Virus record (IMG/VR): IMGVR_UViG_3300028482_000001
Span: 16,556-80,555 of that record
DNA length: 64,000 nucleotides
Reading direction: 5' to 3' (one strand)
Source of the DNA: a virus
Taxonomy: Duplodnaviria > Caudoviricetes
Numbering within the stretch: position 1 is the first letter of the stretch; each line of letters starts with the position of its first letter. This document shows, one piece after another, positions 20,894 through 61,976 of this stretch. The translations under genes and the position numbers were made by a program. The notes under the pieces were generated by a model. That model saw only the letters and a list, made by a program, of their open reading frames with translations, was not told where the DNA came from and searched no databases.

Positions 20894-20992
20894 TTGAAAC
20901 AATTATAAACATGTAATAAAATTAATATGAACGATGTGTCAAAAAGACAGTCATTTATCTTTCATGGGATAAGTGGCTGTCTTTTTTTTTTG
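20894..20992 (+). promoter_or_regulatory. Late leader motif copy A (promoter + GATGTG + terminator hairpin)
   Basis: TTGAAA-17-TAAAAT; gatgtgtc; aagacagtca...tggctgtctt + T-tract. Confidence 0.8.
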
Positions 20993-21008
20993 TTTAGGAG
21001 TAATAAAA

Positions 21009-22631
21009 ATGGGCGGTTTTAAAGAAATTGATATAAAAAAAGAATTAAGAAAAAGGGTTGCATATAACCAAAAAGAAAATGGAAACGGTATTTTCAATAA
21101 AGATTTTTTCCTGGGGCAAGGAACGCTTGATAATGCAGATTCTATTTTTTATGATCCTTATTTTGTGTCTGAAAATGCTTTCCATGGAATTAGAACTATA
21201 TCACGTGTACAATTCGGGGGAATCCCATGTGCAACTTTAAGGAAAGTAGCTCAAAAAGCATGGATTATTAATACTTGTATTAATCACATCCAAAAGAAAA
21301 TCAAACCATTCTTAAAACCTGTAACAGATAGAAATTCTAGGGGCTTTTTGATTTATAAAAAGGGTGAAGATTTAACAAAGACACAAAAAGCCGATAAAAC
21401 GAGAGATGAAATTAGAGATTTTATTATTAACTGTGGGAACTTTGAAGATGCAGATAGAGATGATTTTGTTAAATATTGTATAAAAATTGTGCGTGATAAT
21501 TTAACTATTGATCAAGTTGCAACAGAATTACAGTACACAAAAGATAAAAAGTTATGTGCTTTTTATGCTGTAGATGCTGCAACAGTTGAAAAAGTAATCC
21601 CAAATAAAAATGTAAAAACAGATTGGAAATATATTCAAGTTGTAGATGGAATTCCTGCGGCCGGATATACAACTGATACAATGCTTTTTGATTTTGAAAA
21701 TCCAAGAACAGATATTTACCATTCTCAATATGGGTATTCATATGTAGAACAAGCAGTAGACTTAATAACATCATTTATTAATACTTTTGTATATAATGCC
21801 GGAAACTTTACAGAAAACAAACTTCCTAAAGGTATGCTTTTAATTAGCGGAGATGCAACTTCTGAACGAATTGAAGAAATGGAAGATTATATTGCTGAAA
21901 TTATGAGTGGTGGGCCACTTAATCAGTGGAGAATCCCAATAATTCCAGCAGGAGATAAAGAAGCAAGTATTGAATGGAAACAACTAAACGGAAACAACAG
22001 AGAAATGGAATTCCAACAATGGAATGACTATTTAACTAGTGCTGTAGTTGCTATGTTTGGTTGTTCAATGGATGAACTAGGAATTCAAAGCCAAAAATCA
22101 CAAACAATGTTTGAAAACTCTGGAGCAGACAGAATGTCGGCTAGTAAATCTTTGTTGTTAGGTGATTTATTAACATTTCTTGAATCTTACATAAATAAAA
22201 TCGTTAAAAAAATAAATCCTGATTATGTATTAGAATTTGTAGGATATGAAAAAGACAATCCAAACACTGTAGCAGATTTAGACGAAAAAGAAGTTAGAAC
22301 CTGGAAAAGTATTAACGAAAAAAGAGCAGAAAAAGGATTAGACCCTATAGACTTGTCAAAGATTGAAAACGGGGCAGACTTACCAATGAATGGTCAACTT
22401 GTACAAATGTTCCAGGCTGCACAAGCTCAAACAGGTATGGGCGATATGGGGGGAATGGGTGAAGAAGGAACAGAGGATAATGATGATTGGCAGAATTATG
22501 GAGATGAAGAAGGCACTAACGAAGAATCTAACAATGATTACAGTGGTTTAGAAGATTCCAAAAATACTAATGCTTATAGTGGACTTGAAGAAAGTTCAGA
22601 AGATATAAACAAATCATTATTAAGGATTTAG
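21009..22631 (+). CDS. Portal protein (SPO1/Twort-like)
   Basis: 'IDQVATE..AVDAATV..NFTENKLPKGML..QWRIPI..MEFQQW..AMFG..DELG..FVG'; follows TerL; acidic tail. Confidence 0.88.
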   Translation: MGGFKEIDIKKELRKRVAYNQKENGNGIFNKDFFLGQGTLDNADSIFYDPYFVSENAFHGIRTISRVQFGGIPCATLRKVAQKAWIINTCINHIQKKIKPFLKPVTDRNSRGFLIYKKGEDLTKTQKADKTRDEIRDFIINCGNFEDADRDDFVKYCIKIVRDNLTIDQVATELQYTKDKKLCAFYAVDAATVEKVIPNKNVKTDWKYIQVVDGIPAAGYTTDTMLFDFENPRTDIYHSQYGYSYVEQAVDLITSFINTFVYNAGNFTENKLPKGMLLISGDATSERIEEMEDYIAEIMSGGPLNQWRIPIIPAGDKEASIEWKQLNGNNREMEFQQWNDYLTSAVVAMFGCSMDELGIQSQKSQTMFENSGADRMSASKSLLLGDLLTFLESYINKIVKKINPDYVLEFVGYEKDNPNTVADLDEKEVRTWKSINEKRAEKGLDPIDLSKIENGADLPMNGQLVQMFQAAQAQTGMGDMGGMGEEGTEDNDDWQNYGDEEGTNEESNNDYSGLEDSKNTNAYSGLEESSEDINKSLLRI

Positions 22632-22635
22632 GGCG

Positions 22636-22809
22636 ATGAATGAAATTTGTAAAAATTGTACTTGGTGGGTAGAAGAAACTGACAAAATCGGAGAGTACGA
22701 ACATAAGGAAGCTCTAAAACAAAATAAAGGTTTTTGTTTGTGCCAAGATTTGTTTACAAATAAAGAACCTGATGATGAATGTGATTGTGGAGAATTTAAT
22801 CATGAGTAG
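22636..22809 (+). CDS. Small Cys-rich hypothetical protein
   Basis: 57 aa MNEICKNCTWW...CLC...CDC; below the ORF-track cutoff. Confidence 0.5.
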   Translation: MNEICKNCTWWVEETDKIGEYEHKEALKQNKGFCLCQDLFTNKEPDDECDCGEFNHE

Positions 22810-23002
22810 AAGTTATCGAAAAACACCAATAGTAAAAGATAATGGCAAACACAAACAATACTGGAAAAGACAAGCAAATAAAAGATGTCGCAAAGAAAGA
22901 GTTGGTAGTGGTGGGGAATATAAAAAGCATTATGATCAATACTCTATTTGTGATTGGAAGTTTAGATTAAAGAATTTGTGTAAAAAGAAAATGTCAAAAT
23001 AA
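22802..23002 (+). CDS. Small basic phage protein
   Basis: 'MSRSYRKTPI..KRQANKRCRK' type seen in many phages. Confidence 0.6.
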   Translation: MSRSYRKTPIVKDNGKHKQYWKRQANKRCRKERVGSGGEYKKHYDQYSICDWKFRLKNLCKKKMSK

Positions 23003-23058
23003 GGGAAATTAATGGAAAATTAAGGGAAATTTCCCTTGTTTATTTAAAAGGAGATAAA

Positions 23059-26000
23059 ATGGGAAAACTAGTAATTAAAAAATCTGTTGCAAATCAAATA
23101 ACAAGCAAATTAAAAACTCATAAAAATGATGATATAACGCCCGAATTTGCAGAAAATCTGCAAAAATCGGACTTATTTTCTGAAAATAAGCAAGTTTCAG
23201 TCAAATTACAGTCAAATAAAAATATAGGTGTAACTCCTGATGATTGTTATTATGATTTAGATAATCCCACAGAGAAATTTTATTATGATTTGAAAATGAA
23301 ATTTGCTCAGAGTGATAAAGCAGATGATATTGAGAAATCACATAAATATATAAGACGATGGAAAATGAATAATGGTGAATGGAGATATGAATATCCAAAA
23401 GGGGTTGATAAAAAAATACATTCATTTAGAGATGTAACAACAGCTCTAACAAATAAGACAACAGAAATAAAAGATATTCAACCATTAACAACAGAAAAAC
23501 AGATTGATGCAGAGCTTGAAAGATTAACAAAACTTTCAGAAGAAGGAAAACTTACTTGTCCGGCTTTAGGAAATGCAAATATTTACATTGAAGATATGAC
23601 TACAGAACATGCAGAAAAAACAAACGGTGTATTTAGAACAAAGGAAGCTAAAATTCATAAGTTACAATATCTTTCTTTTGTTGAAGATGTTCTTAAAAAT
23701 GGTATTCTATTTATGAAATCACGTAAATACAATCATGCTTGGTCATTAGATAAGATTTCAGAAAGAGAAAGAACTACTTATGGAATTATTAACAAGGTTA
23801 CATATTTTGACAAAAAGAAAAATAAAAACATAACATGTGGAATGGAAATTGTTGTTGCGTGGGATAATGAAAGAAAAAGGTTTGTGTTTTCATTTATTGA
23901 TAGACAAATAAAAAAATCCTTGTTATTTAACAAGGATTTTCAAACGACCACTTTCGAGGCGGGTCAGGTAGGTGCTTGTAAAACAGAGGCTTTTTCTACC
24001 ACCGACTCTATAATACCACATTTGATAAATTTGTCAAGTAGAAATGTAAATAAATCCCTTACTTATTCTGGTTATAAATTACAAGGTAGAACTAGACTTT
24101 ATGGCATGGATATTTCCATTGAAAATAAAAAAGGAAGTTATAGATGTGGTGTAGATTCAGATGGTCATAAGTGGGAAATTTTAATGCACTATGATTATGG
24201 ATATATTAGGGGAACTGTAGGAGTAGACAAAGATCACTTAGATTGTGTAAGCCCAGAAACAAAAATCTTAATGGCTGATTATACTGAAAAAAGTGCTGCA
24301 GATATAAAAGAAGGCGACGAACTTATTGGAATTAAATTAGAAACACAACAGCATAAGCAGCGAAAACAGATTAAAACTAAAGTTATTCATGTCAAAAAAG
24401 GTATGGATGATATGCTAGATATTACTCTTGAAAATGGTGTAAAACTGAGAACTACTAAAGGTCATTTACATTATTATTTTCAAGGTAAGACAAGAGATAA
24501 GTATTGGAAGCGTGCTGATGAATTAAAAATTGGTGATAAACTTGTAATGATTTACAATCATCATAATTTTGAAGAAACAGAAGATTATAAAAAGGGTTAT
24601 CTCTTTGGAGCTTATATCGGCGATGGATGTTATAATTTTGATGAATCAAAACAGGTTTATTGTGATATTAGAAAAGGCGTTGCTTTTATTGATGTTATAC
24701 ATAGAGTAAAACAATATTGGAATGATTTAGGTTTAGAAACATCTAAGATAAGAATAGACAAACCTAGACAGACAAATTCTTTATTAGCAGATGGTAGAAA
24801 AGTTATATCTAAAATGGATTTAGCTATATTATCTATTAGAGGTATAAACAAAATAAGATATATTAAATCAATTCTTGTAAAAAATCCTAAATCTTTTGAA
24901 TGGTGTCGTGGTTATATCGCTGGTTTATTTGATACAGATGGATGCTTGAATTGTAGACATGAATTCCTGATAACTCAAACCAAAAATCAAGATGAATTTA
25001 TGAAATTTACAATTGAATGTATTAATAAATTGGGTTATCAAGCAGTAAAAAGATACAATGAAATTAAATTACATACAGATTATATGGCTGATAATATAAC
25101 AATGGAGTTTACTCAAATTATTAAGCCAGCTCTTGAAAAGAAAAGAAACTTTTTAGGCCAAACTTATAGATATGAGCCATTGGAAATTGTGGATATAAAG
25201 CCATATACCGGGGAGTTTGTTGCTATTCAGACTGATGAACAGACATATATTGCAAATGGACTTGTAACACATAATTGCTATGTTGGACCAGATAAAAACA
25301 CAAAAAAAGTTTATGTAATTCATCAAAACAATCCTATTACTCATAAATACGATGAAGATAAATGTATGTTGTGTTTTGAAAGTGCAGATGCAGCCAAAAA
25401 AGCATATATGAAACAATATGATAGACCAGGATTTTTTGGAAGTATGGAAACATTAACTGTAGAACAATTCAAAACTTTTGTATTTTCAAAACAAGGTAGT
25501 AGAATACACAAATCCTTTGATATTGAAATAACTGATATTACTGAAAATAATAAGCAAAGAAAAGTTGAGCAAGTAGAAAAGGCATTAAACGCTATTTATA
25601 ATAACAAACCTTTTGTAATTGAGCATATTTCAAAAAAATTAGATTTCTCAAGAAAATATAATGATATTTTAATGAGAATTACTGATTTTGATAAAAACAA
25701 AATTGAAAAAGCTGTACATTCATTGGCATTTACATTAGATACTAAAGTTAAGGCAAGTAAAGGAGAGGCCTTTGTATATGCCAGTCAGGAAGATTTAACA
25801 AATCAGATTGTTAATGAAATTACTGAAAAAACAAAAAAGATTTATAATTTCGTAATTTCATTTTTTGACTTACCTGAAATTACTATCGTAAGAAAAGCAA
25901 ATTTAATTCATAAAGGGAAAATAATATACAATCCTGAAACAGGAGAACCTGTGAAAAAAGCAGAGTGGGATAAATTTGTAGAAGAATTAGAAAAAATGCT

Positions 26001-26706
26001 TAATAAAAATTATATGGGGTATGGTGAAAAAATAGTTTTAAAAGGTGAAACGTTAGGACTGATTTTAGATCGTCTTGCAAAAACTAATTCTTTTGAAGCA
26101 ATTCAGAAGAAAAAACTTTCGGACATTGTATATAAACGAAAACATTTTGATTGGATTTCGGATGATATAAAAAATTTAAAAACTATTATTGGTGAACCTA
26201 TATCAAGGGAACGGGCAGCAAGAATTGAAGTTGCGATGCAGAGTGTAGGGCAAAGAATATCAAGGGTAAAAGATTCTCTTAAAAATGAAATCCAGCAAGT
26301 TATTATTGACGGAATTAAAAACAAAGAATCGAAGAGAGTTGTTTCTCAAAATTTGTTTGATAAGTGTGTAGGACTTAATCGAGATTTTCAAAAAATTGCA
26401 GATAGTGAAATCCAAAATACAGTTAATAATGCATATATCAAAGAAGAAGTTTTTAATTCAGACGAAAATGAAAAAATCTATTTTAAAAGGTTTGAAGTGA
26501 TAGATGATAACACTTGTTCAAAATGTAAAAAAATAAAAGGGAAACTTGCACTTTATAGCAAAGTTCCTTTGGATGATGAACATATCAAGGATGAGTATGC
26601 TGATTATGCAATATGGGAAGGTAAAGTAGATGGAGATTTGCCTATGGGGATATTGCATCCTTATTGTCGTGGATCGTGGGTTAGGTATTATCCGGAGGTT
26701 GATTGA
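23059..26706 (+). CDS. Polyvalent protein: BECR/LPD3-like nuclease + InPase-like domain (intein-split) + MuF-like head morphogenesis domain
   Basis: InPase motifs 'ISIENKKGSYRCGVDSDGHKW..YGYIRGTVGVDKDHLD|CYVGP..YDEDKCMLCF'; C-terminal 'C..C...LHPYCR' MuF motif. Confidence 0.75.
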   Translation: MGKLVIKKSVANQITSKLKTHKNDDITPEFAENLQKSDLFSENKQVSVKLQSNKNIGVTPDDCYYDLDNPTEKFYYDLKMKFAQSDKADDIEKSHKYIRRWKMNNGEWRYEYPKGVDKKIHSFRDVTTALTNKTTEIKDIQPLTTEKQIDAELERLTKLSEEGKLTCPALGNANIYIEDMTTEHAEKTNGVFRTKEAKIHKLQYLSFVEDVLKNGILFMKSRKYNHAWSLDKISERERTTYGIINKVTYFDKKKNKNITCGMEIVVAWDNERKRFVFSFIDRQIKKSLLFNKDFQTTTFEAGQVGACKTEAFSTTDSIIPHLINLSSRNVNKSLTYSGYKLQGRTRLYGMDISIENKKGSYRCGVDSDGHKWEILMHYDYGYIRGTVGVDKDHLDCVSPETKILMADYTEKSAADIKEGDELIGIKLETQQHKQRKQIKTKVIHVKKGMDDMLDITLENGVKLRTTKGHLHYYFQGKTRDKYWKRADELKIGDKLVMIYNHHNFEETEDYKKGYLFGAYIGDGCYNFDESKQVYCDIRKGVAFIDVIHRVKQYWNDLGLETSKIRIDKPRQTNSLLADGRKVISKMDLAILSIRGINKIRYIKSILVKNPKSFEWCRGYIAGLFDTDGCLNCRHEFLITQTKNQDEFMKFTIECINKLGYQAVKRYNEIKLHTDYMADNITMEFTQIIKPALEKKRNFLGQTYRYEPLEIVDIKPYTGEFVAIQTDEQTYIANGLVTHNCYVGPDKNTKKVYVIHQNNPITHKYDEDKCMLCFESADAAKKAYMKQYDRPGFFGSMETLTVEQFKTFVFSKQGSRIHKSFDIEITDITENNKQRKVEQVEKALNAIYNNKPFVIEHISKKLDFSRKYNDILMRITDFDKNKIEKAVHSLAFTLDTKVKASKGEAFVYASQEDLTNQIVNEITEKTKKIYNFVISFFDLPEITIVRKANLIHKGKIIYNPETGEPVKKAEWDKFVEELEKMLNKNYMGYGEKIVLKGETLGLILDRLAKTNSFEAIQKKKLSDIVYKRKHFDWISDDIKNLKTIIGEPISRERAARIEVAMQSVGQRISRVKDSLKNEIQQVIIDGIKNKESKRVVSQNLFDKCVGLNRDFQKIADSEIQNTVNNAYIKEEVFNSDENEKIYFKRFEVIDDNTCSKCKKIKGKLALYSKVPLDDEHIKDEYADYAIWEGKVDGDLPMGILHPYCRGSWVRYYPEVD
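23910..24037 (-). ncRNA. Antisense promoter plus ~94-nt sRNA with terminator (copy 2)
   Basis: Minus-strand TTGACA(24037-24032)-16-TGnTATTAT; terminator aaaatccttgtt/aacaaggatttt + U7. Confidence 0.6.
24244..25275 (+). mobile_element. 344-aa intein with LAGLIDADG homing endonuclease
   Basis: Starts 'CVSPETKILMAD', ends 'YIANGLVTHN' followed by +1 Cys; endonuclease blocks 'YLFGAYIGDG' and 'YIAGLFDTDG'. Confidence 0.95.
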
Positions 26707-26730
26707 GTATTAAATTTAAAACTTTATCTA

Positions 26731-26895
26731 TTGACAAGTCGTAAATTTTATATTATAGTTTGATTATTAGTATTAATTTTAATACTAGTTGTTTTAAATA
26801 AAGAGTTGCGTATTTGTTTAAGACTATTACTAACCTATTATCTTTTTTCAACGCAACCCTAGATGACTAGGTGAAAAAAGGTGATAGGTTTTTTA
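26731..26895 (+). promoter_or_regulatory. Promoter, operator palindrome and structured attenuator leader
   Basis: TTGACA-17-TATAGT; tagtattaattttaatacta; terminator 26832-26850/26872-26890 + T-tract. Confidence 0.7.
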
Positions 26896-26917
26896 TTTTA
26901 AAGGAGTAAGGTAAGGT

Positions 26918-27412
26918 ATGATAGGATACAAAGCATTTGACAAAAATTTATGTTGTCGAGGATTCCGGTTTGAAGTTGGAAAAACTTACACAAAAGACAC
27001 TAAAAAAGAAGATTTAGAATGTTGTACTGACAAAGTATTTCATTTTTGTCGAGAACTTTTTGCTATAGAAAAAGAAAGTAATTACAAACTTTCAGAATCA
27101 AGAATTTGCGAAATTATCGCAGGTGAATATATAAAACAAGACGACAAGTACGGAACGAATTCAATTACAATCCTTCGTGAGATTATAGGAGATGAAAAAA
27201 AAGAACATAAACAAGAGATAAAAACCTGTGGTGGCTTTTTAAAATCTCTTGAATACAAAGAAGCGTTTAGATTGGCTTGGGATAAAGCAAGTAAAGAAGA
27301 ACATAAAAAACTTCTTAAACTTCCTAACTGGAATAATGAAATTTTTAAAGAAATTTCTGGAATCGACGCAGAAGCAGAAATAAAAAAAGAAAATAAGGAA
27401 TTAGAAAAATGA
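26918..27412 (+). CDS. Phage protein of the 'GYKAFDKNL.CRGF' family, lacking the usual central repeat region
   Basis: N-terminal 'GYKAFDKNLCCRGFRFEVGKTY' and C-terminal 'GGFLKSLEYKEAF..LPNWNNEIFKEISGID'. Confidence 0.65.
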   Translation: MIGYKAFDKNLCCRGFRFEVGKTYTKDTKKEDLECCTDKVFHFCRELFAIEKESNYKLSESRICEIIAGEYIKQDDKYGTNSITILREIIGDEKKEHKQEIKTCGGFLKSLEYKEAFRLAWDKASKEEHKKLLKLPNWNNEIFKEISGIDAEAEIKKENKELEK

Positions 27413-27735: not shown

Positions 27736-27739
27736 AAGA

Positions 27740-28350: not shown

Positions 28351-28453
28351 AAAAAATGACAAAAGAAGAAAACGAAAAACTTATTGAAAGTGATTGTTAC
28401 AAATTGATTAAGGCTTTAGTTGATTTGTTGATTGCGTTGAAAAGATTTGATAA

Positions 28454-28843
28454 ATGGGAGAAAACAAAATGAAATACGTACAAGACACAAAAGAAAAATC
28501 AATTTTTATAAAGTTTTATGAAAATGACCCACTTGGATTCTGCAATCATAGAACCATAGATACAGAAGAAGCAAAAGAAAAATTACGTAAATTAAAACGA
28601 AAAATAGATTGCATTGAACGAGCGATAAATCTAGTAGAAATAAATAATACAAATGATTTGTGGAGCAGATACAAAAGAGGTGAACTTCCTGCAATTCATG
28701 ATTCTGGAGATATTGTAAAAGACGCTTTTCAAGACGCTTTGAATATTCAAGCTAATAGAATTCTTGGTAATTTGCAAAAACATTTTACAAATATGACAGA
28801 AGAAGAAATTGAAAATATAATTTTTCCTGATAATCGAGAATAA
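28454..28843 (+). CDS. Hypothetical protein
   Basis: 129-aa ORF in the accessory operon. Confidence 0.6.
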   Translation: MGENKMKYVQDTKEKSIFIKFYENDPLGFCNHRTIDTEEAKEKLRKLKRKIDCIERAINLVEINNTNDLWSRYKRGELPAIHDSGDIVKDAFQDALNIQANRILGNLQKHFTNMTEEEIENIIFPDNRE

Positions 28844-28862
28844 TTAAAAAGGAGGTAAAAGA

Positions 28863-29300: not shown

Positions 29301-29303
29301 ATT

Positions 29304-30443: not shown

Positions 30444-30644
30444 TTGTTACGCAAAAAAGAAGGATTTTTTATGAAGAAATTTATGTTTTTTTTAAGTTGT
30501 ATTATTGGAATTGTTTGCGTTATTGGGGCATCAGTTGTTAAATTTGGGCTGAATTATAATATCAGTGATGTGTTTTTAATAATAAGTTATTTTTTGTGTC
30601 TTTTACCGATAGGAATATATGTTTTTGTTATTGAAAACAAATGA
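30444..30644 (+). CDS. Small two-TM membrane protein
   Basis: Two hydrophobic helices; preceded by a TATAAG -10-like site. Confidence 0.5.
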   Translation: MLRKKEGFFMKKFMFFLSCIIGIVCVIGASVVKFGLNYNISDVFLIISYFLCLLPIGIYVFVIENK

Positions 30645-30667
30645 AAAAAAATGTAATATATTATTAG

Positions 30668-30720
30668 GATGTGTCTTAAAGGCAGTCATGATGTTTAGTC
30701 GTGGCTGCCTTTTTTGTTTT
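30668..30720 (+). promoter_or_regulatory. Late leader motif copy B
   Basis: gatgtgtc-aaggcagtcatga..tcgtggctgcc + T6. Confidence 0.8.
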
Positions 30721-33700: not shown

Positions 33701-35671
33701 ACTTTACAAGATGTAAAAGAGTTTGTTGATGATGTTTATGGTGAATATAATCAGACATTTGATTCTCAGATTTTAAGAGTTCCAGAAGTTAATAAACTAA
33801 CACAAGAAAGAGATGGTATTATTAAAGAGAAGAAAAAAATTAGAGAATCTGTTATGGAATGGTGTAGGAATGAACTTGTTCCAAAATATAAGAATCTCGG
33901 TAAAAAAGAAAGAAAGGCTTTTTGGAGATATAGGGAAGAATTAAAGAAAGAAATTAGTGAGAAAATTCGTGAATTTGATCCTAATTATAATAATCCTAAT
34001 ATAGATATTGAAATTGATACAAGTAATATGTGGTGGCCTATAAATATTTCCTCAGAAGGTATTTTACAAGAGAAAATAGATAAAGCTAATAATAAATTAA
34101 AAACAGCAAGAGAAAACGCAAAAAATATCATTATGAATAATAATGTTACTTATCAAGTTTGGAAAGAACTAGGGGATTTTGCAGATTTGCGTTATTCAAA
34201 AACATTCCAAAAACATTATAACAATCTGACAGTTTATGATGAAAAACAAGCAACAAAACCTAATGGCGAAATTTACGAAACTTATGCTTATAAATATAGA
34301 GATAAAGAATATGATAAATATGAAAATTGGGATTGGATTGATAAAAAAACTAATAAAAAAGCAAAACCGGAATCTGAGATAATCGAGGGGAAAGTAAAGA
34401 GAACTTTTGAAATGATTGTGCCATCTACCATAGAAAGGATTGGAGGTAGAAATGTTTCTGTTAAATCTACAGAAGAATTAAAAAAAGCATTTAATTTCAG
34501 GGATATTCAAACAGGGTCTTATGTACAATCAGATCCCGTTAGTGCTAAATGGCATATAGACAATTTAGCGAATGGTTTCGCTGATTTATGTGATGTTTTG
34601 GGGATACGAGATGATCAAGTATCTCTTAATGGAAGGTTGGCTCTTGCTGTTGGTGCTAGAGGACATGGTAGAGCCTTAGCACATTATGAACCTGTTGAAC
34701 GAGTAATTAATATTACAAAATTCAAAGGTGGTGGTTCTCTAGGGCATGAATGGTTTCATGGTTTTGATAATATGATTGCCGAAGCAATTACAGGTGGAAA
34801 TGTCAGTGTATATATGTCAGATCCAAGAGCAGCAAGTAAAAAATATAGGTTGCATGATGATATTCCAGATAATGAACTTGCTCATAATGTAAGAAATAAA
34901 TTTATTAATCTTGTAGATGCAATGATGACAGGTGATACTCCTGAAACAGAAGTAATTACATATAAATCTATAGATGTAGAAACAGCAAAAAAATTCTTTG
35001 AAAAAGATTTGCCATTCCAGGCTGCATATTATAGTTATGGTAATGATTTTTATAAGAAATTAGCTAATGCAAAAACTCTTGATGATGCAATATCAGTAAT
35101 TAATGAAAGGTATAAAGATACAATAAATCTTATTCATAACAATTCAGAAAAAATTAGTCGCATGGGTAAATACGAACAAAAACGCATGAAAGATACAGTT
35201 AAAAATTATGAAAAGTATCGAACTATGGCAGTTGCATACTTTGATACAAAGGCTGATAAATCTAATGGTGGAGAAGTTTCTGTAAAGACAGGAAGAATTG
35301 TTTCAAGATTTTATGAAGATTCAAAAAAATTAGATATTGGGAGATCTAAAAAATATTGGTCTGAACCTGTAGAAATGGCTGCAAGAGCATTTGAAGCTTA
35401 TTTAGTTGATAAATTAAAGGAAAAAGGTCAGAAAAATGATTATCTTTCAGGTCATGCTGATAATACAGTTTATTTAGGGGAATGGTTTCCATATCCAACT
35501 GAAAAAGACAGAGTAAAAATAAATAAAGCCTTTGATGAATTATTTGAAGTAATCAGAAATGAAAATGCAATTAGAAAATCTTTAGATATATTAAAGAATC
35601 GTGAAGAAATAAAAAAATCACTTCCTTTATTCTTTATTAAAAATGGCAGATTCTATATTAGAAAATCATAA
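30737..35671 (+). CDS. Large polyvalent protein (MuF-C/BECR-like nuclease, LPD1-like domain with HExxH)
   Basis: 'TPLILQEHGIPNNPI..HGHNIS..LPNQLENPVYIL..NSVRSLY' nuclease-like region; 'LALAVGARG..AHYEP..GSLGHEWFH..YWSEPVEMAARAFEAY' LPD1-like. Confidence 0.7.
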   Translation: MGKMAKIIVNLNELKGFSFYRNYIEKAKKGEMVGGKYMYREEVPEKVKTSKGKTTVIRYKYYYLTDMLKDSAEKLLENIGKFFFKGNEKEVKKIENSYKTQNIEKDYGADKKTWYQHCMEYLSHKAKWDKRFSNKDNAEKFKTPIKQKVVEKVDIPGMETAAVETPEIKTSIETEKKEATWKPNPSLMRKVWSLYNGVESVNSGVSVGDTVNFNGRKGTVTKKVNDNMVMVSFEDGGLGRFFAKDLNKVEISNESVTNEADVNGKIQEVVTGLNTSNDTVEETTDGQGNKIAMLGNQNAKKNFVDFIDKFITNGYKSDKVVNLLDTTPLILQEHGIPNNPISITPSVLKKILENDLNVYHGHNISVDILKDLPNQLENPVYILKGKDGKKIIVTEYYVENRPIITILEIDRKEGRTNVNSVRSLYDKQNTVFMEWIKDDSIVEYENKEKSKVLLQSIGNQYTKEVTTPYINNNTTNIENVNSEHGNSIAMLGNDNAKKDFVDVKQGFSEMDKKLLALALYKEKEFNPTMNDYYYYEKLRYKYPNLASKGSIYSIMEELKGIDVKNINLDEVKEYVEKIKGGGDEPPKNDAKKNFVDGLSLDTELIANANNSSYMYEAGDAINREYLGGIEAINSWDLTDEEKQKAKQKLFELTTEQLKAQAKAISVTVAGPARKVSGSDTAFDKVQKIRGKIKELLDTIRAKNNTNVQKQEMKDFTTAATEAMNNNKLAFVYDGKVYYRGNIKSSSWSEINHIPEVDETKTVDEKKKELKKLKEESKNLGFANPENTKTLDRIEKLKNEIAYMNTDEWQNRHNAMLGNQNAAKPFSEEETKKEQKKVKETREKAGLPKIGINYGERVSAMEDSVSLNPNAENYAYKDTGYIAGSQKEKIQDFWKIKKESGEGTSIEEIDWNTLEENPRYAEQQITKSNILGNIDYNSFKEKGMDSRAAYLASRVFAAIPKEPTGHDVTARKNYVIAINTVKERLSECKTLQDVKEFVDDVYGEYNQTFDSQILRVPEVNKLTQERDGIIKEKKKIRESVMEWCRNELVPKYKNLGKKERKAFWRYREELKKEISEKIREFDPNYNNPNIDIEIDTSNMWWPINISSEGILQEKIDKANNKLKTARENAKNIIMNNNVTYQVWKELGDFADLRYSKTFQKHYNNLTVYDEKQATKPNGEIYETYAYKYRDKEYDKYENWDWIDKKTNKKAKPESEIIEGKVKRTFEMIVPSTIERIGGRNVSVKSTEELKKAFNFRDIQTGSYVQSDPVSAKWHIDNLANGFADLCDVLGIRDDQVSLNGRLALAVGARGHGRALAHYEPVERVINITKFKGGGSLGHEWFHGFDNMIAEAITGGNVSVYMSDPRAASKKYRLHDDIPDNELAHNVRNKFINLVDAMMTGDTPETEVITYKSIDVETAKKFFEKDLPFQAAYYSYGNDFYKKLANAKTLDDAISVINERYKDTINLIHNNSEKISRMGKYEQKRMKDTVKNYEKYRTMAVAYFDTKADKSNGGEVSVKTGRIVSRFYEDSKKLDIGRSKKYWSEPVEMAARAFEAYLVDKLKEKGQKNDYLSGHADNTVYLGEWFPYPTEKDRVKINKAFDELFEVIRNENAIRKSLDILKNREEIKKSLPLFFIKNGRFYIRKS
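32078..32178 (-). ncRNA. Antisense promoter plus ~65-nt hairpin sRNA (copy 3)
   Basis: Minus-strand TTGACA(32178-32173)-16-TGnTATTAT; 15-bp closing stem (32085-32099/32129-32143) + U6. Confidence 0.6.
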
Positions 35672-35729
35672 TGTCTAAATTAATGTCTAAGATGTCTAAA
35701 TTAATTACAAGTTAGACATTTTTAGACAT
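35671..35729. repeat. ATGTCTAA x3 plus inverted TTAGACAT x2
   Basis: Copies at 35671, 35683, 35692 (direct) and 35712, 35722 (inverted). Confidence 0.85.
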
Positions 35730-35879
35730 TGATTTTTGACCAGAAGCTCCAACTGAGCATATTGATCCTTATTGGGGAGGTTGTACAGGGGAATATGCAA
35801 AAAAAAGAATGAAAGAACTTGAAAATGGTGTAAATGTTTTATAATAAAATCTGCAACTAGTTTTAAAAGAGTGATATAT

Positions 35880-35910
35880 AAGACCTTGTTAAACGCAAGG
35901 TCTTTTTTTT
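35880..35910 (+). terminator. Intrinsic terminator
   Basis: aagaccttg/caaggtctt + T8. Confidence 0.75.
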
Positions 35911-36118
35911 ATAATTCTTTCCCATCTTTAAGAAACTTTATTTCAATTCCTAACTGATCACAAATTTCAATTATATCACTTAGTTTTAAATCATTTCTAT
36001 ATAATTTGTTAAACAGATTTTGTTTAGAAGTATTTAACTTTTTAGCTAGATCTGTAATCCTGATATTATTTTTTATGCAGCCAATTTCTATAATTTCTTT
36101 AATATTAATTTCATTCAT
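35909..36118 (-). CDS. Small XRE HTH protein
   Basis: 'IRITDLAKKLNTSKQNLFNKLYRNDLKLSDIIEICDQLG'. Confidence 0.8.
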   Translation of the reverse strand: MNEINIKEIIEIGCIKNNIRITDLAKKLNTSKQNLFNKLYRNDLKLSDIIEICDQLGIEIKFLKDGKEL

Positions 36119-36660: not shown

Positions 36661-36873
36661 GTGATTTTAAAAAAAATATTAGATAATGGTTTTCTAGGAG
36701 ATATTATGAATAAAAAAATATTAAAATTAATTACAGATGTTATTGCAACAAGGTTCGCAGAAGTCTTGGATTTAATTGATCCAGAATGGGATAAAAAAGC
36801 AAGGCAATTTGAAGGTGAATGGAAAGATTTTGGTTTTAATTTGATTTATGAAAAACTGACAGAAGAAAAGTAG
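36661..36873 (+). CDS. Small hypothetical protein
   Basis: Likely start at ATG ~36706 after RBS aggag. Confidence 0.5.
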   Translation: MILKKILDNGFLGDIMNKKILKLITDVIATRFAEVLDLIDPEWDKKARQFEGEWKDFGFNLIYEKLTEEK

Positions 36874-36962
36874 ACATAAATAGTTTTATTAAGTATAATA
36901 TTTATAATGATGTGCGAGAAGGCAGTCATAACCTAAGAGGTTGTGGCTGCCTTTTTTGTTTT
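36871..36962 (+). promoter_or_regulatory. Late leader motif copy C
   Basis: TAGACA-17-TATAAT; gatgtgcg-aaggcagtca..tggctgcc + T6. Confidence 0.8.
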
Positions 36963-41013: not shown

Positions 41014-41067
41014 AATTTTTTATAAGAAGCGAGAAATTAATAGATATGTGATAGTTTTTTATTAAAT

Positions 41068-41134
41068 AATGTGTCTAGTGAAGGCAGTTATCAACATCAT
41101 AAAAGCAAACGATTGTTGATAATTGCCTTTTTTT
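41068..41134 (+). promoter_or_regulatory. Late leader motif copy D
   Basis: aatgtgtc-aaggcagttatcaaca..tgttgataattgcc + T7. Confidence 0.7.
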
Positions 41135-41716: not shown

Positions 41717-41810
41717 TTGACAAAAAAAATATTATGTAATAAAATTAGTTTATAGTGTTGATGTGCTAAAAGGCAGTCATGACATTTAGTCGTGGCTGCC
41801 TTTTTTGTTT
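41717..41810 (+). promoter_or_regulatory. Late leader motif copy E
   Basis: TTGACA-17-TAAAAT; gatgtgct-aaggcagtcatga..tcgtggctgcc + T6 (near-identical to copy B). Confidence 0.85.
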
Positions 41811-48954: not shown

Positions 48955-49056
48955 TTGACAATTTATGCATAATAAATTAAAATTATTGTATATAGTGTGC
49001 TACAGAAGGCAGCTAGAAATTCAATTTTATTTGAGTTTCTAGCTGCCTTTTTTTTT
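48955..49056 (+). promoter_or_regulatory. Late leader motif copy F
   Basis: TTGACA-17-TAAAAT; agtgtgct-aaggcagctagaaa..tttctagctgcc + T9. Confidence 0.8.
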
Positions 49057-50185: not shown

Positions 50186-51898
50186 ATGGGTGTAGGTCCA
50201 GCTATTTTTGAAAGTGCAGGGAAAAGAACTGAACATTTTGTTCCAGGTTCTTACTCACGATCTAATAATGTAACTTCTCCATCAGGTGTTTCAGCAGGTA
50301 ACTTATGTATTATCGGTACTGCGAGTAGTGGAAAGCCAAAAAATGTATATGAGTTTGCTACAATTGGTGATGCACAAACAGTTTTAGGGAGTGGAGAATT
50401 GCTTGAAGGTGTTGCATTTGCTTTTTCTGGCTCAAATGAATATGTGCCACAAAAAGTAATGGCAATTCGAGTAAACAAAGGAACACAAGGTAAAGCTACT
50501 TTAAAAAGTGGAGATGTTGATGTATTAACATTGACTGCTTGGGATTATTCGGCGCAAACAAATCAGCTTAAAATTAAAGTAGAAGATGGTTCTATCGAAA
50601 AATCAAAAAAAGTTACTGTAGTGTTCAAAGATTCTGTAATTGAACATGATAATATTATCAAACCGTCTTTACAAGTAATTGGAACTTGTGAGCAACCAAC
50701 AGTAACAATTAATAACGATTCAATGATTTTGAGTGGTACTGATGAAGAAGGCGGTGCAATAACAGAAATAATCAAGTTTGACGATTTTCCAACTATTACA
50801 GATATTGTAACAAAAATCAATGATACTGATTATTTCACAGCAATTTCACAAGATACAGATGAAAAATCATTGTCAAAGGAATTAGATACTGTTTCAAGTA
50901 TTGATATTTCAGAACCTGTAATTTTATATTCAAATTTCAAAGTTTTTAAGGACGTGCTTTCATCAATTGAATATATTGCAGCAGTTGAAGATAATGGACA
51001 AACAAGAACTGTTCCAGATAATAGCTCGTTTGTTTATTTTACTGGAGGCTCTAGTACACCTGCTACAATTGAAGATTGGAGTGATGCCTTAGCCGAACTT
51101 GAAGCACATGACATTCAAATTATTGCAACTCCATCAACTGATGAAGATGTACAAGTTTTAATTGCTAACCATTGTACTACAATGTCGTCAACAATTAATC
51201 GAAAAGAAAGAACTTGTTGGCTTGGTGGTCCAATCAATCAAACAGATGAAGAAGCATTAACTAAAGCGCGAGAATTTAATAATAAACTAGTATCATATGC
51301 TGCAGACACTGTTATTGTTGCAAATCCAATTACTGGCGCAACACAGACAGCACCAGGTGCAAAGTTAGCTTGTATGTTGGCAGGAATTGAAAGTTCAATC
51401 TCAATTAATATGCCTTTGACAAACAAAACTCTTAAAGTACTTGGTTTTGCAAAAACTCGCCAACTTCCAAATATGGAAAAACTTATCAAAGGTGGTGTAG
51501 TTGTGTGTAATCCATCGCCTGATGATGTTTCTAATTTTGTTGTCATACGATCATTAACAACTTATCAGTCAGAAGATTTAATTTCAAATGAACGCTCAAT
51601 GACACGAGAAGATTTGTATATGAATCGAGATTTGCGAAAAAGATTTGCAAGACCTGTAGGCTCGCCAAATGTATTAAGTACTGCATCTATATTAGCAACT
51701 TTGAATGATGCTGCTAAAGATTGGGCAAGTGCAGGACTTATTATTCCATCGGATAGCAATGAAAATGTTTGGAATAAATCAGTTAAAATTGACGGGGATA
51801 AAATTTATATTACCTTCGCAAGATATTTAACTGCGCCACTCAATTTTGCTTTTATTACAGCTACTAATCACGTTTATAAATCAACAGTTGAAGTATAG
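50186..51898 (+). CDS. Contractile tail sheath protein
   Basis: 'PGSYS..IIG.A.SG.P..' N-terminus and 'IVRSLTTY..ERS' C-terminus; 570 aa. Confidence 0.9.
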   Translation: MGVGPAIFESAGKRTEHFVPGSYSRSNNVTSPSGVSAGNLCIIGTASSGKPKNVYEFATIGDAQTVLGSGELLEGVAFAFSGSNEYVPQKVMAIRVNKGTQGKATLKSGDVDVLTLTAWDYSAQTNQLKIKVEDGSIEKSKKVTVVFKDSVIEHDNIIKPSLQVIGTCEQPTVTINNDSMILSGTDEEGGAITEIIKFDDFPTITDIVTKINDTDYFTAISQDTDEKSLSKELDTVSSIDISEPVILYSNFKVFKDVLSSIEYIAAVEDNGQTRTVPDNSSFVYFTGGSSTPATIEDWSDALAELEAHDIQIIATPSTDEDVQVLIANHCTTMSSTINRKERTCWLGGPINQTDEEALTKAREFNNKLVSYAADTVIVANPITGATQTAPGAKLACMLAGIESSISINMPLTNKTLKVLGFAKTRQLPNMEKLIKGGVVVCNPSPDDVSNFVVIRSLTTYQSEDLISNERSMTREDLYMNRDLRKRFARPVGSPNVLSTASILATLNDAAKDWASAGLIIPSDSNENVWNKSVKIDGDKIYITFARYLTAPLNFAFITATNHVYKSTVEV

Positions 51899-53179: not shown

Positions 53180-53193
53180 TGGGGTGAGAATAA

Positions 53194-55245: not shown

Positions 55246-55328
55246 ATAATTGACAAAGATTTTAAACTAATATAAAATTTTACTAAGTAGTGTGTTTTGA
55301 AAAAACAGCTATCACAAAGAGGGTATTG

Positions 55329-56882
55329 ATGTTCAGTGATAGTATGCAAGTTAAGATAAACACACCAGATTTTAAAATTAGTATTGGTGATTACCTTGCT
55401 AATTTTGACGATACAAATAAAGAATCATACGAACAAACAACAGGCGATAGAGATCCTACTGCTCTAGGATTAAAGCCTTATTATGAATTTTCTCCAATAT
55501 CCACATATTTTAGTGGAACAAATGTTTTATCTTATTCTTTTTCTAACACAGTTTCAGATATTGAATCTCAATTTTCAATAACAATAAAAGAAGATACAAA
55601 AACAAACAGTGGTGAATATTTTTTAGATAAAGTAAAAGAACTTGATGTGGTTCAAATTACTGAAAATGGGGAAAGTGTTTTTTGGGGAGTTATTAGAACA
55701 ATTTCTTTTGGAGCAACTGCAGGAGCTTTTAACAAAGTTATAACAATTTCAGGTGTTTCTGCAAGTTCACTTCTCAAAATGTTTAAAATTCACACAGATT
55801 TATCAATCATACAGTCTTTTGTTTCCGATACTTCAAATTCTGAATTAACAAGAAGAATAACAAATTTATTTTTAAATAAAAATAACACTGATGGCGTTGA
55901 TGTGATGGAAATTTTTAGATTAGTTTATCTTAATTTCTATTATGTATCAAATGGGTTTGTTTATAAAAATAAAAAATGGAAGAAAAATAACAATAGAAAA
56001 GTAGTTGCAAGTACAAAAATTCAGCGTTTGTTTAATTTTATTTTTGGTGTTGTTCATGATGACAATGATGGAGAAAGCTACAACTTAGCGAAAGGCAAGA
56101 AATTAGGCCATAAAAAGCCTGTAGAGTTTTTAGACTGTGATTTAAAAATGAAATATCAAATTGCAAGAAACTTATATAACGAAACTGAATGTAGTGTTTA
56201 TTCTTATTTTGATGAAATGTTTCCTAGAGAGTTATATGAATTTTATTGTGATTTAAAAACGAACACATTTTACATCCGGGAAAAACCATATGCAAAGGAT
56301 AAATGGGAGGGGCTCACAAAAACTATTATTAATCCTGCGTTGATTACAGATTATACGCTGACAAAAACAGATACAAATATTTATACTGCATTTTTTTCTT
56401 ATCCGCAAGGTTCAACTTTAGATAGCTCAACATTTAAAGTTATCAACTCGACAGGAAAGAACGGTAATAGTGTTGTACAAGTTGTAGAGGAATTAGTTGA
56501 GTTATATGGATTCATCCCATTTGATTGTTCGATAACAGGGTATATCCCATCAAAAAATAAAAGTGTTAAAACAGTTGATATTTCTAAAGAGTACTCAACT
56601 AAATTAAAAGAAGCATACGAAAATTTACGTGATATGTATTCAGGTGATGTAACATTTATTAATTTAAATGATGGAACTAAAAAGCCAACTATTGGGGAAA
56701 AAGTTGAACTTTGTAATAACGAATTTTATGTTACGGAAGAACAACATTCTTGGAGTTATAACGGACCATGTAAAATTAATTTAAAACTTGAACGTGGTGG
56801 AAAATATAAAGATGGAGAATTTTGCAAAAATGAAAAACAAAATTTATCAAAAACTTGGGCGGAATTATTGGAGAAAGAATAA
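55329..56882 (+). CDS. Baseplate hub/tail protein
   Basis: 'VFWGVIRTIS..ITISG', C-terminal 'FYVTEEQHSWS..LKLERG'. Confidence 0.7.
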   Translation: MFSDSMQVKINTPDFKISIGDYLANFDDTNKESYEQTTGDRDPTALGLKPYYEFSPISTYFSGTNVLSYSFSNTVSDIESQFSITIKEDTKTNSGEYFLDKVKELDVVQITENGESVFWGVIRTISFGATAGAFNKVITISGVSASSLLKMFKIHTDLSIIQSFVSDTSNSELTRRITNLFLNKNNTDGVDVMEIFRLVYLNFYYVSNGFVYKNKKWKKNNNRKVVASTKIQRLFNFIFGVVHDDNDGESYNLAKGKKLGHKKPVEFLDCDLKMKYQIARNLYNETECSVYSYFDEMFPRELYEFYCDLKTNTFYIREKPYAKDKWEGLTKTIINPALITDYTLTKTDTNIYTAFFSYPQGSTLDSSTFKVINSTGKNGNSVVQVVEELVELYGFIPFDCSITGYIPSKNKSVKTVDISKEYSTKLKEAYENLRDMYSGDVTFINLNDGTKKPTIGEKVELCNNEFYVTEEQHSWSYNGPCKINLKLERGGKYKDGEFCKNEKQNLSKTWAELLEKE

Positions 56883-57620: not shown

Positions 57621-57623
57621 TTT

Positions 57624-59737: not shown

Positions 59738-59746
59738 GGAGAATAC

Positions 59747-60835
59747 ATGGAAACAAACGATTATAATACACTTGTAGAAAATATGAAAAACAATTTTATT
59801 GTAAATTCTAAAGTGTCAGACTTGAACGAAGGTTCAATGGTAAAAACAACTTTTGAATCTGTTGCAAATGTTTTAGAAGAAGCTTATATAGATACTCGAC
59901 TTGGATTTCAACAGAATTTAACACAAATTGCAACGAGTATTTTTAATTTCAAGAAAAAAAACGGAAAAGCTGCAAATGTTGAAGTATATTTTTCACGAGC
60001 AACGCCTTCTAGTGATGAAGTAATAATTCCATCTAATACAATTATTTCTGATGGAACATTTAGATTTTTTACTTCGGAAGTAGCAAGAATACAACCTAAT
60101 GAAATTAATTCAAATACTGTTTTTGCTCAAGCAGAAGATATAGGAACAGAGTACAATGTTTCTTCTGGAACAATTAATACTATTGAATCTTCTATTCCTT
60201 CATCTGTAGTTGCAGTAACAAATTCAAAAAAAGCAATAGGTGGGGCAGATGAAGAAAGCGATACAGAAATGCAGGCAAGATTTAAGAATTATATCAATGG
60301 GTTACAGGGAACAAATAAATATGGAATTATGGCAGGACTATTAGCAAATCCTAAAGTTAGATCTATTAGCGTTGTAGAAGATGCAGTAGAGGAAACAGGG
60401 GCAGATGCAATTATTTATATTGACGATGGTACTGGAAATTTATCCGAAGATTTGAAATCAGAATTATTAGACATTGTTAATGGTACAGAAGATAGTACTA
60501 ATCCAGGTTTAAGAGCTGGCGGCGTTTTAATCGACTTAGAACCTTGTACTCAAGTTGCAATTGATGTAGAAGCAAAAATAACTCTTTATAGAGCAGAAGA
60601 AAACTTTGCAGATGCCGCATTGAAAGAAACTGTAGAAAAAACTATCAATAGTCTTTTAATTAACGAAGATGTTATATATGCAGATATAATTACAGCACTT
60701 AAAAATACAGGAAGTTATGTAAAAAACATCAAAAATTTAACGTTGAACTCAATCACAAATACAGATGTTACAATTAACGAGCATCAAATTGCAAGATTAG
60801 GAAACGTGAATTTTACATATGATTATTGGGAGTAA
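59747..60835 (+). CDS. Baseplate J-like protein
   Basis: 'AEDIGTEYNV..GGADEESD..RF' J motifs. Confidence 0.9.
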   Translation: METNDYNTLVENMKNNFIVNSKVSDLNEGSMVKTTFESVANVLEEAYIDTRLGFQQNLTQIATSIFNFKKKNGKAANVEVYFSRATPSSDEVIIPSNTIISDGTFRFFTSEVARIQPNEINSNTVFAQAEDIGTEYNVSSGTINTIESSIPSSVVAVTNSKKAIGGADEESDTEMQARFKNYINGLQGTNKYGIMAGLLANPKVRSISVVEDAVEETGADAIIYIDDGTGNLSEDLKSELLDIVNGTEDSTNPGLRAGGVLIDLEPCTQVAIDVEAKITLYRAEENFADAALKETVEKTINSLLINEDVIYADIITALKNTGSYVKNIKNLTLNSITNTDVTINEHQIARLGNVNFTYDYWE

Positions 60836-60838
60836 AAA

Positions 60839-61873
60839 ATGACAATTTCAGAAAAGTTAAAAAACAACTTTCCTTCAACTTTAAGTAAAAGTGGAAAGTT
60901 TTTTTCAGCGTTTATCGCAAATGATCAAAAAACAGGAGCAATAGAAAAAGAATTATACAATATTGTTAATTATATGAAAGAATGGAAAAATATAAACAAT
61001 GTGTATGATTCAAAAGGAACTGCTCTTGAATATATCTCTAGTTTTTTTACTTATTTGGAACGATTTACAGATGAAAAAGAAAAAAGTTACCTGGATAGAA
61101 TTAAGGCAATTTTTGTTCGCGGTGGTGATGTAACATGGGGAACTGCTCCTAACATTTTGCATACATTTAAAAACTATTTTAACGTAGATACGATTTATTT
61201 ATTAGAAAAAACTAACGATAAAAGTGAAAATAAATTTCAAAATTATGTTTTTGATGATTTAGAAGGATGGGTTTCTGAAAACGCCGAATTATCAAAAGAA
61301 GCTAGATTTTCAAAAACAAATGGGATTTTATTTCATGATGGAACAATTTCCCAAACTGTAAATACAAATGTAGATAAAGGTTATTACATTCATTTTTTTT
61401 ACAAAGGGCAAGTGTCGATAGAAGTTGAAAATGGGAAAATTTATAAGTGGGATCACAAAGCAGAAATCTATAGAGAAAGTGATGCAAGAAAAGATTTTAC
61501 TTCTGATAAATGGAGTGGTGCGAGTTTTTATTTTAAGGCAAAAAGTGATTCTGTAAATGTTAAATTTTCTGGTACTGAAAACACTTATTTTGATTATCCA
61601 ATGTTTTTTGAAAAAAAGAGAAAAAAATCTTTTACATTGTTTGTTCAGTTTACGGGAGCAACAGCAAAAAACGCCTTAGCCTTATCTCCTGGGAGTGAAG
61701 ATCCAAATGAAGAAATTAAAAATTACGAGCTAGCTGGATATTACGATGATACATATTTAACAGGTGCTAACAGTGGTTTTGCAATAGATTTGTATGCAGA
61801 TTTATTAGAATATGTGAAAGCTGTAGGAGTAAAAGCTTATTTAGAAATCGTAAATCGAGATCAAGATAGTTGA
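60839..61873 (+). CDS. Baseplate wedge (gpI-like) protein
   Basis: Follows J; 'LEYI..ESY..RI' and C-terminal 'VKAVGV'. Confidence 0.6.
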   Translation: MTISEKLKNNFPSTLSKSGKFFSAFIANDQKTGAIEKELYNIVNYMKEWKNINNVYDSKGTALEYISSFFTYLERFTDEKEKSYLDRIKAIFVRGGDVTWGTAPNILHTFKNYFNVDTIYLLEKTNDKSENKFQNYVFDDLEGWVSENAELSKEARFSKTNGILFHDGTISQTVNTNVDKGYYIHFFYKGQVSIEVENGKIYKWDHKAEIYRESDARKDFTSDKWSGASFYFKAKSDSVNVKFSGTENTYFDYPMFFEKKRKKSFTLFVQFTGATAKNALALSPGSEDPNEEIKNYELAGYYDDTYLTGANSGFAIDLYADLLEYVKAVGVKAYLEIVNRDQDS

Positions 61874-61976
61874 AAAAGAAAGAAAAGTAATATATAATTA
61901 ATTATAACATATAAAGTATAAAAAACGATGTGTATATAAAAGACAGTCGGCTCTAACAGCCTACTGTCTTTTTTTT
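61870..61976 (+). promoter_or_regulatory. Late leader motif copy G
   Basis: TTGAAA-17-TATAAT; gatgtgta-aagacagtcggct..agcctactgtctt + T-tract. Confidence 0.8.

Follow-up and report, generated by a model that had tools for sequence, protein, structure and literature searches.

How are the late genes of a phage switched on when strong terminators stand between their promoters and their ribosome-binding sites? The question is raised by the IMG/VR virus record IMGVR_UViG_3300028482_000001 (80,555 bp), of which bases 16556-80555 form the 64,000-nucleotide window analysed here; feature coordinates are window positions unless stated otherwise. What is known of late timing in temperate phages comes mainly from lambda Q, RinA/ArpU-type activators and phage sigma factors or polymerases. 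A sequence-only reading of the window had proposed that seven leaders, sharing a GATGTG box and a conserved terminator, hold the late genes off by promoter-proximal termination. Read directly in the sequence, seven copies (A to G, + strand) are present at every position claimed, and the conserved order of promoter, hairpin and ribosome-binding site gives good support to the idea that the late genes are held behind promoter-proximal terminators. Since these terminators lie between promoters and ribosome-binding sites, the late genes would be expressible by read-through alone. We consider this gating architecture, as predicted from the sequence, to be very probable and far more secure than any regulated relief of termination. 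For the latter, our preferred reading is a dedicated sequence-specific reader that would either block hairpin folding or load polymerase at the site, with a probability of roughly 0.5.

Each unit follows the same order: a sigma-70-type promoter, 5-62 nucleotides (nt), a GATnTGT-like box, 6-12 nt, an A-rich GGCAGYC 5' arm, a hairpin of 14-21 bp, a run of 6-10 T and then the ribosome-binding site, with 10-40 nt between the T-run and the start codon, which leaves no space for a second promoter (Table 1). The hairpins, perfect or nearly so over 14-21 paired positions, fold at -19.8 to -33.4 kcal/mol (z -5.1 to -6.8), values that no shuffle equals. Typical terminator stems measure 7-9 bp (PMC10325885), and the prediction that the seven hairpins are canonical, unusually strong intrinsic terminators is thus well supported. 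The core pattern ATGTG-N2-9-ARGRCAG occurs 6 times against 0.17 expected, a count reached in 0 of 100 shuffles. With a covariance model built from the seven copies (R1), these score 56-71 bits (E 1e-12 to 2e-9), and there is no further match at E<1e-7 on either strand of the whole 80,555-bp genome. Note that the search of the window against Rfam 15 gave no match at gathering thresholds, and only chance-level matches at permissive E-values.

Host-type promoters had been assigned to copies A, C, E, F and G, and these are borne out by 10-11 of 12 matches to TTGACA-17-TATAAT; copy B, absent from that list, also has one, and at copy D the match is weak only. A match of at least 10/12 lies within 90 nt upstream in 25 of 35 aligned copies (exact TTGACA in 14), for a background in the window of ~0.5 such matches per kb per strand, and TTGACA is retained at equivalent positions among relatives while the surrounding sequence diverges. 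This frequency, together with the retention of TTGACA amid diverging flanks, argues for real promoters preceding the terminator. The genes expected behind the leaders were likewise found, namely the portal (A), the protease and major capsid protein (E), the tail module with its sheath (F) and a tail-fibre-like gene (G); no family could be assigned to the 797-amino-acid (aa) protein behind C or to the 181-aa protein behind D. The promoter of copy C overlaps the stop codon of the upstream gene, and the hairpins also stand at the 3' ends of upstream operons.

Such a position between operons, and a single-stranded motif beside a stable hairpin, are typical of RNA processing or stability elements, e.g., the RNase III sites of T7, in which case a nuclease would cut the box and the hairpin would shield the upstream 3' end or the downstream 5' end. 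We regard this as hardly probable, because the U-run right after a perfect stem is a termination signal that processing does not need, the promoters immediately upstream would be pointless, and the loops, which many nucleases read, are unconserved. The same anatomy (promoter, ~60-130 nt, terminator) is also that of a small RNA gene, and the terminated leaders could form a small RNA family with a shared single-stranded seed (GAUnUGU) at the 5' end and a terminator, made in the lysogen like StxS, which is made from PR'-tR' of Stx phages. This would be compatible with gating, and there is a precedent for early termination at a phage late promoter giving a regulatory small RNA (PMC7547250). It nevertheless appears very improbable to us as the explanation, since every copy is directly joined to the ribosome-binding site of a late operon, and since within the phage no complement of the signal (ACAnAUC beside GACUGCC) exists except on the opposite strand of the copies themselves. 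This search of the phage also led us to reject a trans-acting antisense RNA directed at the box and 5' arm. Other candidates were rejected on the structure of the leaders: for leader-peptide attenuation, the box contains an ATG in this phage (relatives have GATTTG, GATATT or TAGTGTG), there is no upstream Shine-Dalgarno sequence, and the reading frames are 2-16 codons long with unrelated sequences; for a riboswitch or T-box, the leader before the hairpin is only ~10-70 nt long and Rfam is blank.

Table 1. Coordinates (window positions), predicted hairpin energies and model scores of the late leader units, and position of the candidate regulatory gene pair.
Feature	Span	Strand	Promoter	Box	Hairpin	T-run	Energy (kcal/mol)	Stem	R1 (bits)	Gene
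Copy A	20894-20991	+	TTGAAA-17-TAAAAT 20894-20922	GATGTGT 20933-20939	20941-20986	20982-20991	-26.3	21 bp	64.8	ahead of portal, ATG 21009
Copy B	30631-30715	+	TTGAAA-17-TAATAT 30631-30659	30668-30674	30678-30712	30710-30715	-23.4	14 bp	69	ahead of 1644-aa MuF-C/LPD1 polyvalent protein, ATG 30737
Copy C	36871-36957	+	TAGACA-17-TATAAT 36871-36899	GATGTGC 36909-36915	36916-36956	36952-36957	-28.3	19 bp	70.6	ahead of 797-aa protein, start 36982 or 36988
Copy D	41041-41134	+	TAGATA-18-AATAAT 41041-41070	AATGTGT 41068-41074	41080-41130	41128-41134	-22.6	base GGCAGTT/AATTGCC	56.2	ahead of 181-aa gene, ATG 41154
Copy E	41717-41806	+	TTGACA-17-TAAAAT 41717-41745	GATGTGC 41760-41766	41768-41804	41801-41806	-25.3	15 bp		ahead of protease and major capsid operon, ATG 41837
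Copy F	48955-49056	+	TTGACA-17-TAAAAT 48955-48983	variant TAGTGTG 48993-48999	49004-49051	49048-49056	-33.4	21 bp; base GGCAGCT		ahead of tail module, ATG 49067; sheath at 50186
Copy G	61870-61976	+	TTGAAA-17-TATAAT 61870-61898	GATGTGT 61927-61933	61938-61972	61969-61976	-19.8	base GACAGTC/ACTGTC; interrupted, 10+4 bp		ahead of tail-fibre-like gene, ATG 62007
Unit H (degenerate eighth)	55250-55331	+	TTGACA-17-TAAAAT 55250-55278	TAGTGTG 55288-55294				CAGC 55306-55309		ahead of 530-aa tail/baseplate gene, ATG 55329
Candidate pair	14823-15264	+								97-aa gene 14823-15116; overlapping 56-aa four-Cys gene 15094-15264

While DNA and single-protein searches of the phage record collection and IMG/VR gave no close relative, alignment of the capsid protein led to 14 loci in IMG/VR and 12 in genomes, at 29-73% capsid identity, and four near-complete relatives (G001-G004) were fetched whole and searched with R1 and a second model, R2. 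This covariance-model search in related phages, which the sequence-only reading had suggested, found copies in all four, always on the late-gene strand (6 in G001, 6 in G002, 5 in G003, where two further sequence variants were recognised by eye, and 2 in the more diverged G004). Mapped against the gene table, these copies occupy positions matching those of the present phage, ahead of the portal, the large polyvalent protein, the 797-aa gene, the protease and capsid, the tail module and a 530-aa gene of the baseplate region; the leader equivalent to copy E stands at the same position in every relative examined. In this genome and the relatives, the model search gave no copy before early genes or before terS/terL.

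The alignments showed which parts of the unit are kept. The CAG/CUG stem core is invariant in all 35 aligned copies. The pairs flanking it covary, with G-C changed to A-U at two positions and with U-G, C-G and U-A at others, and no conservation is seen in the loop columns. In a 29-copy alignment, 96.5% of cells are paired and 36 double-sided changes are found versus 9.4 in shuffles, a signal that collapses once the partners are slid; this alignment was fitted to the model, which favours pairing, but the invariance of CAG/CUG beside covarying neighbours is no fitting artefact. As for the box, its T10 is present in 35/35 copies and its G11 in 33/35. The consensus first proposed therefore stands for a conserved box and stem base with variable loops, but its GATGTG box was too narrow and is better written GAT(G/A/T)TGT across relatives, with TAGTGTG, GGTGTG, GTATGT and GATATT as further variants. 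Because the box is part of the covariance model itself, the search was repeated with a hairpin-only pattern: the strict GATNTGT lies no more than 30 nt upstream of 15 of ~37 genuine hairpins, versus a background of 0.8%, and a looser variant, defined post hoc, lies upstream of nearly all of them versus 8%. Selection on the box and the stem base is thus supported by comparison of genomes with 54-73% capsid identity, whose loops diverge.

These conserved parts bear on the possibility that the hairpins are passive, leaky attenuators or insulators with a fixed low read-through, alike through descent and gene conversion, and with a box that has no role. Several observations agree with it: the hairpins also end upstream operons, copies B and E are nearly identical, other terminators lie just before ribosome-binding sites (in the leader at 26731, described below, and in the distant phage L020), and unit H shows that the terminator can be lost. 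However, any GC-rich stem would then do, whereas the relatives have retained CAG/CUG and the box but replaced loops and upper stems. The order of promoter then terminator is moreover kept at 6-7 positions per genome in three relatives, and the very high expression that capsid and tail genes need would be precluded by a stem of 14-21 bp followed by 6-10 U. A passive role is, in our opinion, unlikely.

The geometry and strand of the signal bear in turn on whether it is read as RNA or as DNA. The distance from the box to CAG is 6-12 nt, versus 5-62 nt from the -10 element to the box (measured over 31 copies); this tight spacing on one side and loose spacing on the other suggest that the box belongs with the terminator and not with the promoter, and the variable distance to the promoter argues against a loading site of the lambda-Q type. 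The geometry would fit a reader that recognises the leader as it is transcribed, or the non-template strand, immediately ahead of hairpin formation. On the reverse strand the seven hairpins score only 18-28 bits with R1, partly because two U-G wobble pairs of the stem would be A-C mismatches there. The sequence GRCAGTC is likewise confined to the + strand, with 8 occurrences there and none on the - strand. Several copies have also retained the 5' GCAG though the 3' arm is no longer CUGC, a hint that the 5' strand may be read as sequence.

A variable distance between box and promoter is also found for ops in RfaH operons, and box and GGCAGYC could instead be a DNA element, i.e., a repressor operator or roadblock shortly past each late promoter, an ops-like loading site on the non-template strand for an elongation factor of host or phage, or a -10-like late promoter element served by modified RNA polymerase. 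Some box variants indeed resemble TAnnnT or GATATT, unit H keeps its box beside a promoter with no terminator, and several helix-turn-helix (HTH) regulators are encoded by the phage. This alternative seems improbable, given that the variable 6-12 nt spacing between box and GCAG fits a rigid double-stranded operator poorly, that the phage has no NusG paralogue or sigma factor, that the conserved TTGACA/-10 pairs upstream make a second promoter unnecessary, and that the strand-specific U-G wobbles point to RNA. A phage RNA polymerase or sigma factor using the box as a promoter was rejected, as no such gene is present.

The motif does not seem to be a property of the host. Four whole metagenome-assembled genomes (MAGs) of 2.6-3.4 Mb gave R1 matches mainly on prophage contigs, the rest lying on a few small ones. 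By itself, the pattern GGCAG..CTGCCTTTT is found 4 times in the 80-kb phage versus 4-11 times per ~3 Mb of host, where many occurrences are not hairpins. In G010, a complete distant relative with 29% capsid identity, ordinary terminators with other sequences precede the late genes. From these comparisons, the motif is limited to these phages and prophages and is not a general terminator type of Treponema, the probable host.

Using these elements, the following course of events can be proposed. A strong host-type (sigma-70 family) promoter would fire, RNA polymerase would copy a short leader of roughly 10-70 nt bearing the GAUnUGU box, and it would then meet an exceptionally long (14-21 bp) intrinsic terminator and stop before the ribosome-binding site, leaving the late operon silent with only a short RNA of ~60-130 nt, so that late expression would require read-through. 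The trigger would be a phage-encoded sequence-specific factor recognising the box and the A-rich GGCAGYC 5' arm. It may act on the nascent single-stranded RNA and prevent the terminator from folding, in a local antitermination that would be HutP- or Mu Com-like, or the box may be a loading site that makes polymerase resistant to termination. The long stems, the selection on bases of the 5' arm and the tight spacing between box and stem make a dedicated reader likelier than a generic processive factor. Efficient termination in the host, regulated read-through, a signal read as RNA and the identity of the reader are all points that we infer.

Several observations weigh against regulated relief by a dedicated reader. 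Minimum-energy and centroid folds of the leaders contain the terminator and weak, non-conserved 5' hairpins that do not overlap it, and predict no conserved alternative (antiterminator) hairpin, so that a trans factor would be needed; no recognisable one was found, and the two candidates considered below have no informative family or fold. The near-identity of B and E indicates that part of the within-genome similarity is recent, and some of it may stem from duplication. Stems of at least 14 bp, as found in all copies but G, resist processive antitermination by conAn in Bacillus subtilis (PMC10325885), which counts against a generic processive mechanism and not against sequestration of the 5' arm. 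Finally, not all late promoters are gated. Unit H has neither 3' arm nor T-run and goes straight into the ribosome-binding site, so the baseplate genes are predicted to be ungated in this phage. Its box lies nine bases past the -10 element, as in copy F, and the equivalent position in G001, G002 and G003 has a complete terminator, so that unit H looks like a deletion. The strong late-region promoters at 28793 and 36195 also have no terminator, and probably serve accessory cassettes.

The earlier statement that no Q or LoaP homologue is recognised holds for Q and for the NusG/LoaP type, and was extended to the six frames of the whole genome. Within this scope the Q families PF06530 and PF03589 gave nothing above cut-off, and RNA polymerase, sigma-70 region 2, NusG-NGN and Q-family domains gave no match; NusG (PF02357) was likewise not matched in the phage genome, the only genome to which that search applied, and no phage protein matched a PHROG antiterminator. 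Among the early open reading frames (ORFs) no match to any antiterminator family was found, and small arginine-rich proteins such as N escape profile searches. With no RNA polymerase or sigma gene of its own, the phage must rely on the host polymerase.

Just upstream of terS, two overlapping genes of 97 and 56 aa are found between RusA and GroES/TerS. They have a promoter of their own at 14788, and their position, by analogy, matches that of the late regulators of many temperate phages. The 56-aa protein has an invariant M-Q-x-C-x-x-C ... C ... G-R ... H-x-C pattern, and in size this small four-Cys protein is reminiscent of Mu Com or P2 Ogr; Mu Com is a zinc-finger protein of ~60 aa, similar to the candidate in size and in Cys pattern. 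The two genes are adjacent in each tested genome that bears the motif (G000-G004, G012 and two MAGs with prophages) and absent from G010, which has no motif, but this is a single case, and many clade-specific genes behave alike. The two proteins (P0121 and P0122) have no Pfam, PHROG or PDB sequence match, and fall only into unnamed phage clusters in the ESM Atlas; sequence searches gave 13 representatives for P0121 and only itself for P0122. For their AlphaFold models (pLDDT, the predicted local distance difference test, 79.8 and 67.8), Foldseek gave nothing below E 0.1, and VIA Z did not exceed 4.2. The pair, though the only candidate for the trans factor, is thus speculative in this role, and we believe rather unlikely. 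In a tentative view, to which we give limited credence, these phages would have a previously undescribed spirochaete-phage antitermination regulon, in which a small phage protein, maybe of this pair, binds the nascent box and 5' arm at 6-8 leaders, prevents the folding of a long-stem terminator that would otherwise be nearly absolute, and switches the late operons on together.

Two observations on the 97-aa gene should be noticed. Its promoter (14788-14825) ends with TAAAAT six bases before the ATG, so its message is probably leaderless or nearly so. In G002 (L026:907-1534) the gene is split, the N-terminal third forming a separate 63-aa ORF and the C-terminal part being fused behind an XRE-type HTH domain.

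Other leaders of the phage are structured as well. At 26731-26920, a consensus TTGACA-17-TATAGT promoter precedes a 155-nt leader (-44.3 kcal/mol, z -5.6). Two hairpins form in its 5' part, followed by a long-range terminator stem, which encloses a small hairpin and ends in a T-run; a last hairpin covers the region of the ribosome-binding site (start 26918). From this predicted fold, it is a second, unrelated promoter-proximal attenuator, ahead of an accessory gene cassette. An early rightward leader at 3198-3421, with a TTGACA-17-TATAAA promoter and ~130 nt of structured RNA, lies before the Ant-like gene at 3422; it contains a terminator-like hairpin (3336-3355) and a second hairpin, a part of it (agagtaatgaag...cttgattgctctgtcagggcaatcaccga) is conserved in G001, and it has no Rfam match. 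A looser leader terminator (L022:6864-6924, - strand, genome coordinates outside the window; R2 E 0.02), with box GGTGTT, stem GCCAAT..ATTGGC and T7, abuts the ribosome-binding site of a minus-strand endolysin operon.

The genome as a whole has a 127-bp terminal repeat and ~30% G+C. Its early and middle genes include an integrase, several XRE-type repressors, Ant-like proteins, RecE/RecT, DnaD/DnaC-type loaders, SSB, RusA and many DNA methyltransferases, and its late genes a terminase, portal, two very large polyvalent proteins (one with an intein), protease, major capsid protein, tail sheath, baseplate proteins and fibre, so that by gene content the phage is a temperate myovirus. Capsid relatives sit within Treponema MAG contigs of 113-160 kb, which exceed the phage in length, and one of the IMG/VR relatives is recorded as a provirus; the host is probably a gut or rumen Treponema, an assignment based on MAG binning only. 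In the 1215-aa polyvalent virion protein (23059-26706), the InPase domain is split by the intein, which has a LAGLIDADG domain (about residues 405-739). A perfect palindrome, GTTGACAAGGTCAAC (19231-19245), overlaps divergent promoters that separate a minus-strand HTH gene (18837-19160) from amidase-like and Ant-like genes (19284-20755), and is likely an operator for the accessory cassette that has inserted between terL and the portal. Directly 3' of the stop codon of the 1644-aa gene (35671-35735), three direct copies of ATGTCTAA and two inverted ones (TTAGACAT) resemble an operator array; a small minus-strand HTH-like ORF (35909-36118) lies nearby.

Altogether, a clade of ~80-kb gut and rumen myophages seems to use distributed gated promoters for late timing, each joining one short recognition signal to an unusually long terminator, with no recognisable regulator. 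If the leaders are regulated, a new antitermination pair, protein with RNA (or with DNA), would come to light. The leaders would also serve as a compact, portable switch of ~100 nt, and would give first access to gene regulation in spirochaete phages, a group almost unstudied to our knowledge. The covariance model already marks the starts of late operons in these genomes.

Compared with described systems, the control proposed here is of a known kind, promoter-proximal termination with read-through; what is new is a multi-copy cis element with no recognisable factor. RfaH-ops, LoaP and conAn resemble it in having a leader cis element, at variable distance from the promoter, that recruits a factor able to take polymerase past terminators in long operons of mobile elements. 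These processive systems, however, use one loading site per operon and ignore the sequence of the terminator, the phage has no NusG paralogue as RfaH and LoaP would imply, and all stems but one have the length that conAn does not overcome (PMC10325885). In HutP on hut mRNA and in BglG/SacY/LicT on the ribonucleic antiterminator (RAT), a protein attaches to the 5' half of a hairpin, or next to it, in the nascent RNA and prevents the hairpin from forming, as may occur here, but no phage protein matched the CAT/PRD, HutP or Com families, the leaders are predicted to form no RAT-like alternative hairpin, and Mu Com acts on translation and not on termination. Like lambda N/nut, the units carry in the transcribed leader a short linear box with a hairpin a few nucleotides further on, at variable distance from the promoter and at more than one site. 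In contrast, boxB, which is no terminator, is a small hairpin recognised through its conserved loop by the ARM peptide, whereas here the loops vary, the stem base is conserved and the hairpin is itself the terminator; no N-like protein was recognised, short disordered proteins being hard to detect. The lambdoid PR'/qut/tR'/Q system is similar in its constitutive host-type promoter, its immediate intrinsic terminator and the short RNA made until a phage factor permits read-through. Q, of which this phage has no homologue, requires both a DNA site and pausing that depends on sigma, at a fixed distance from the promoter, while here the box lies at variable distances from the -10 element; and where lambda has one unit, this phage has 6-8, one per late operon, in which the conserved signal includes the terminator's own 5' arm.

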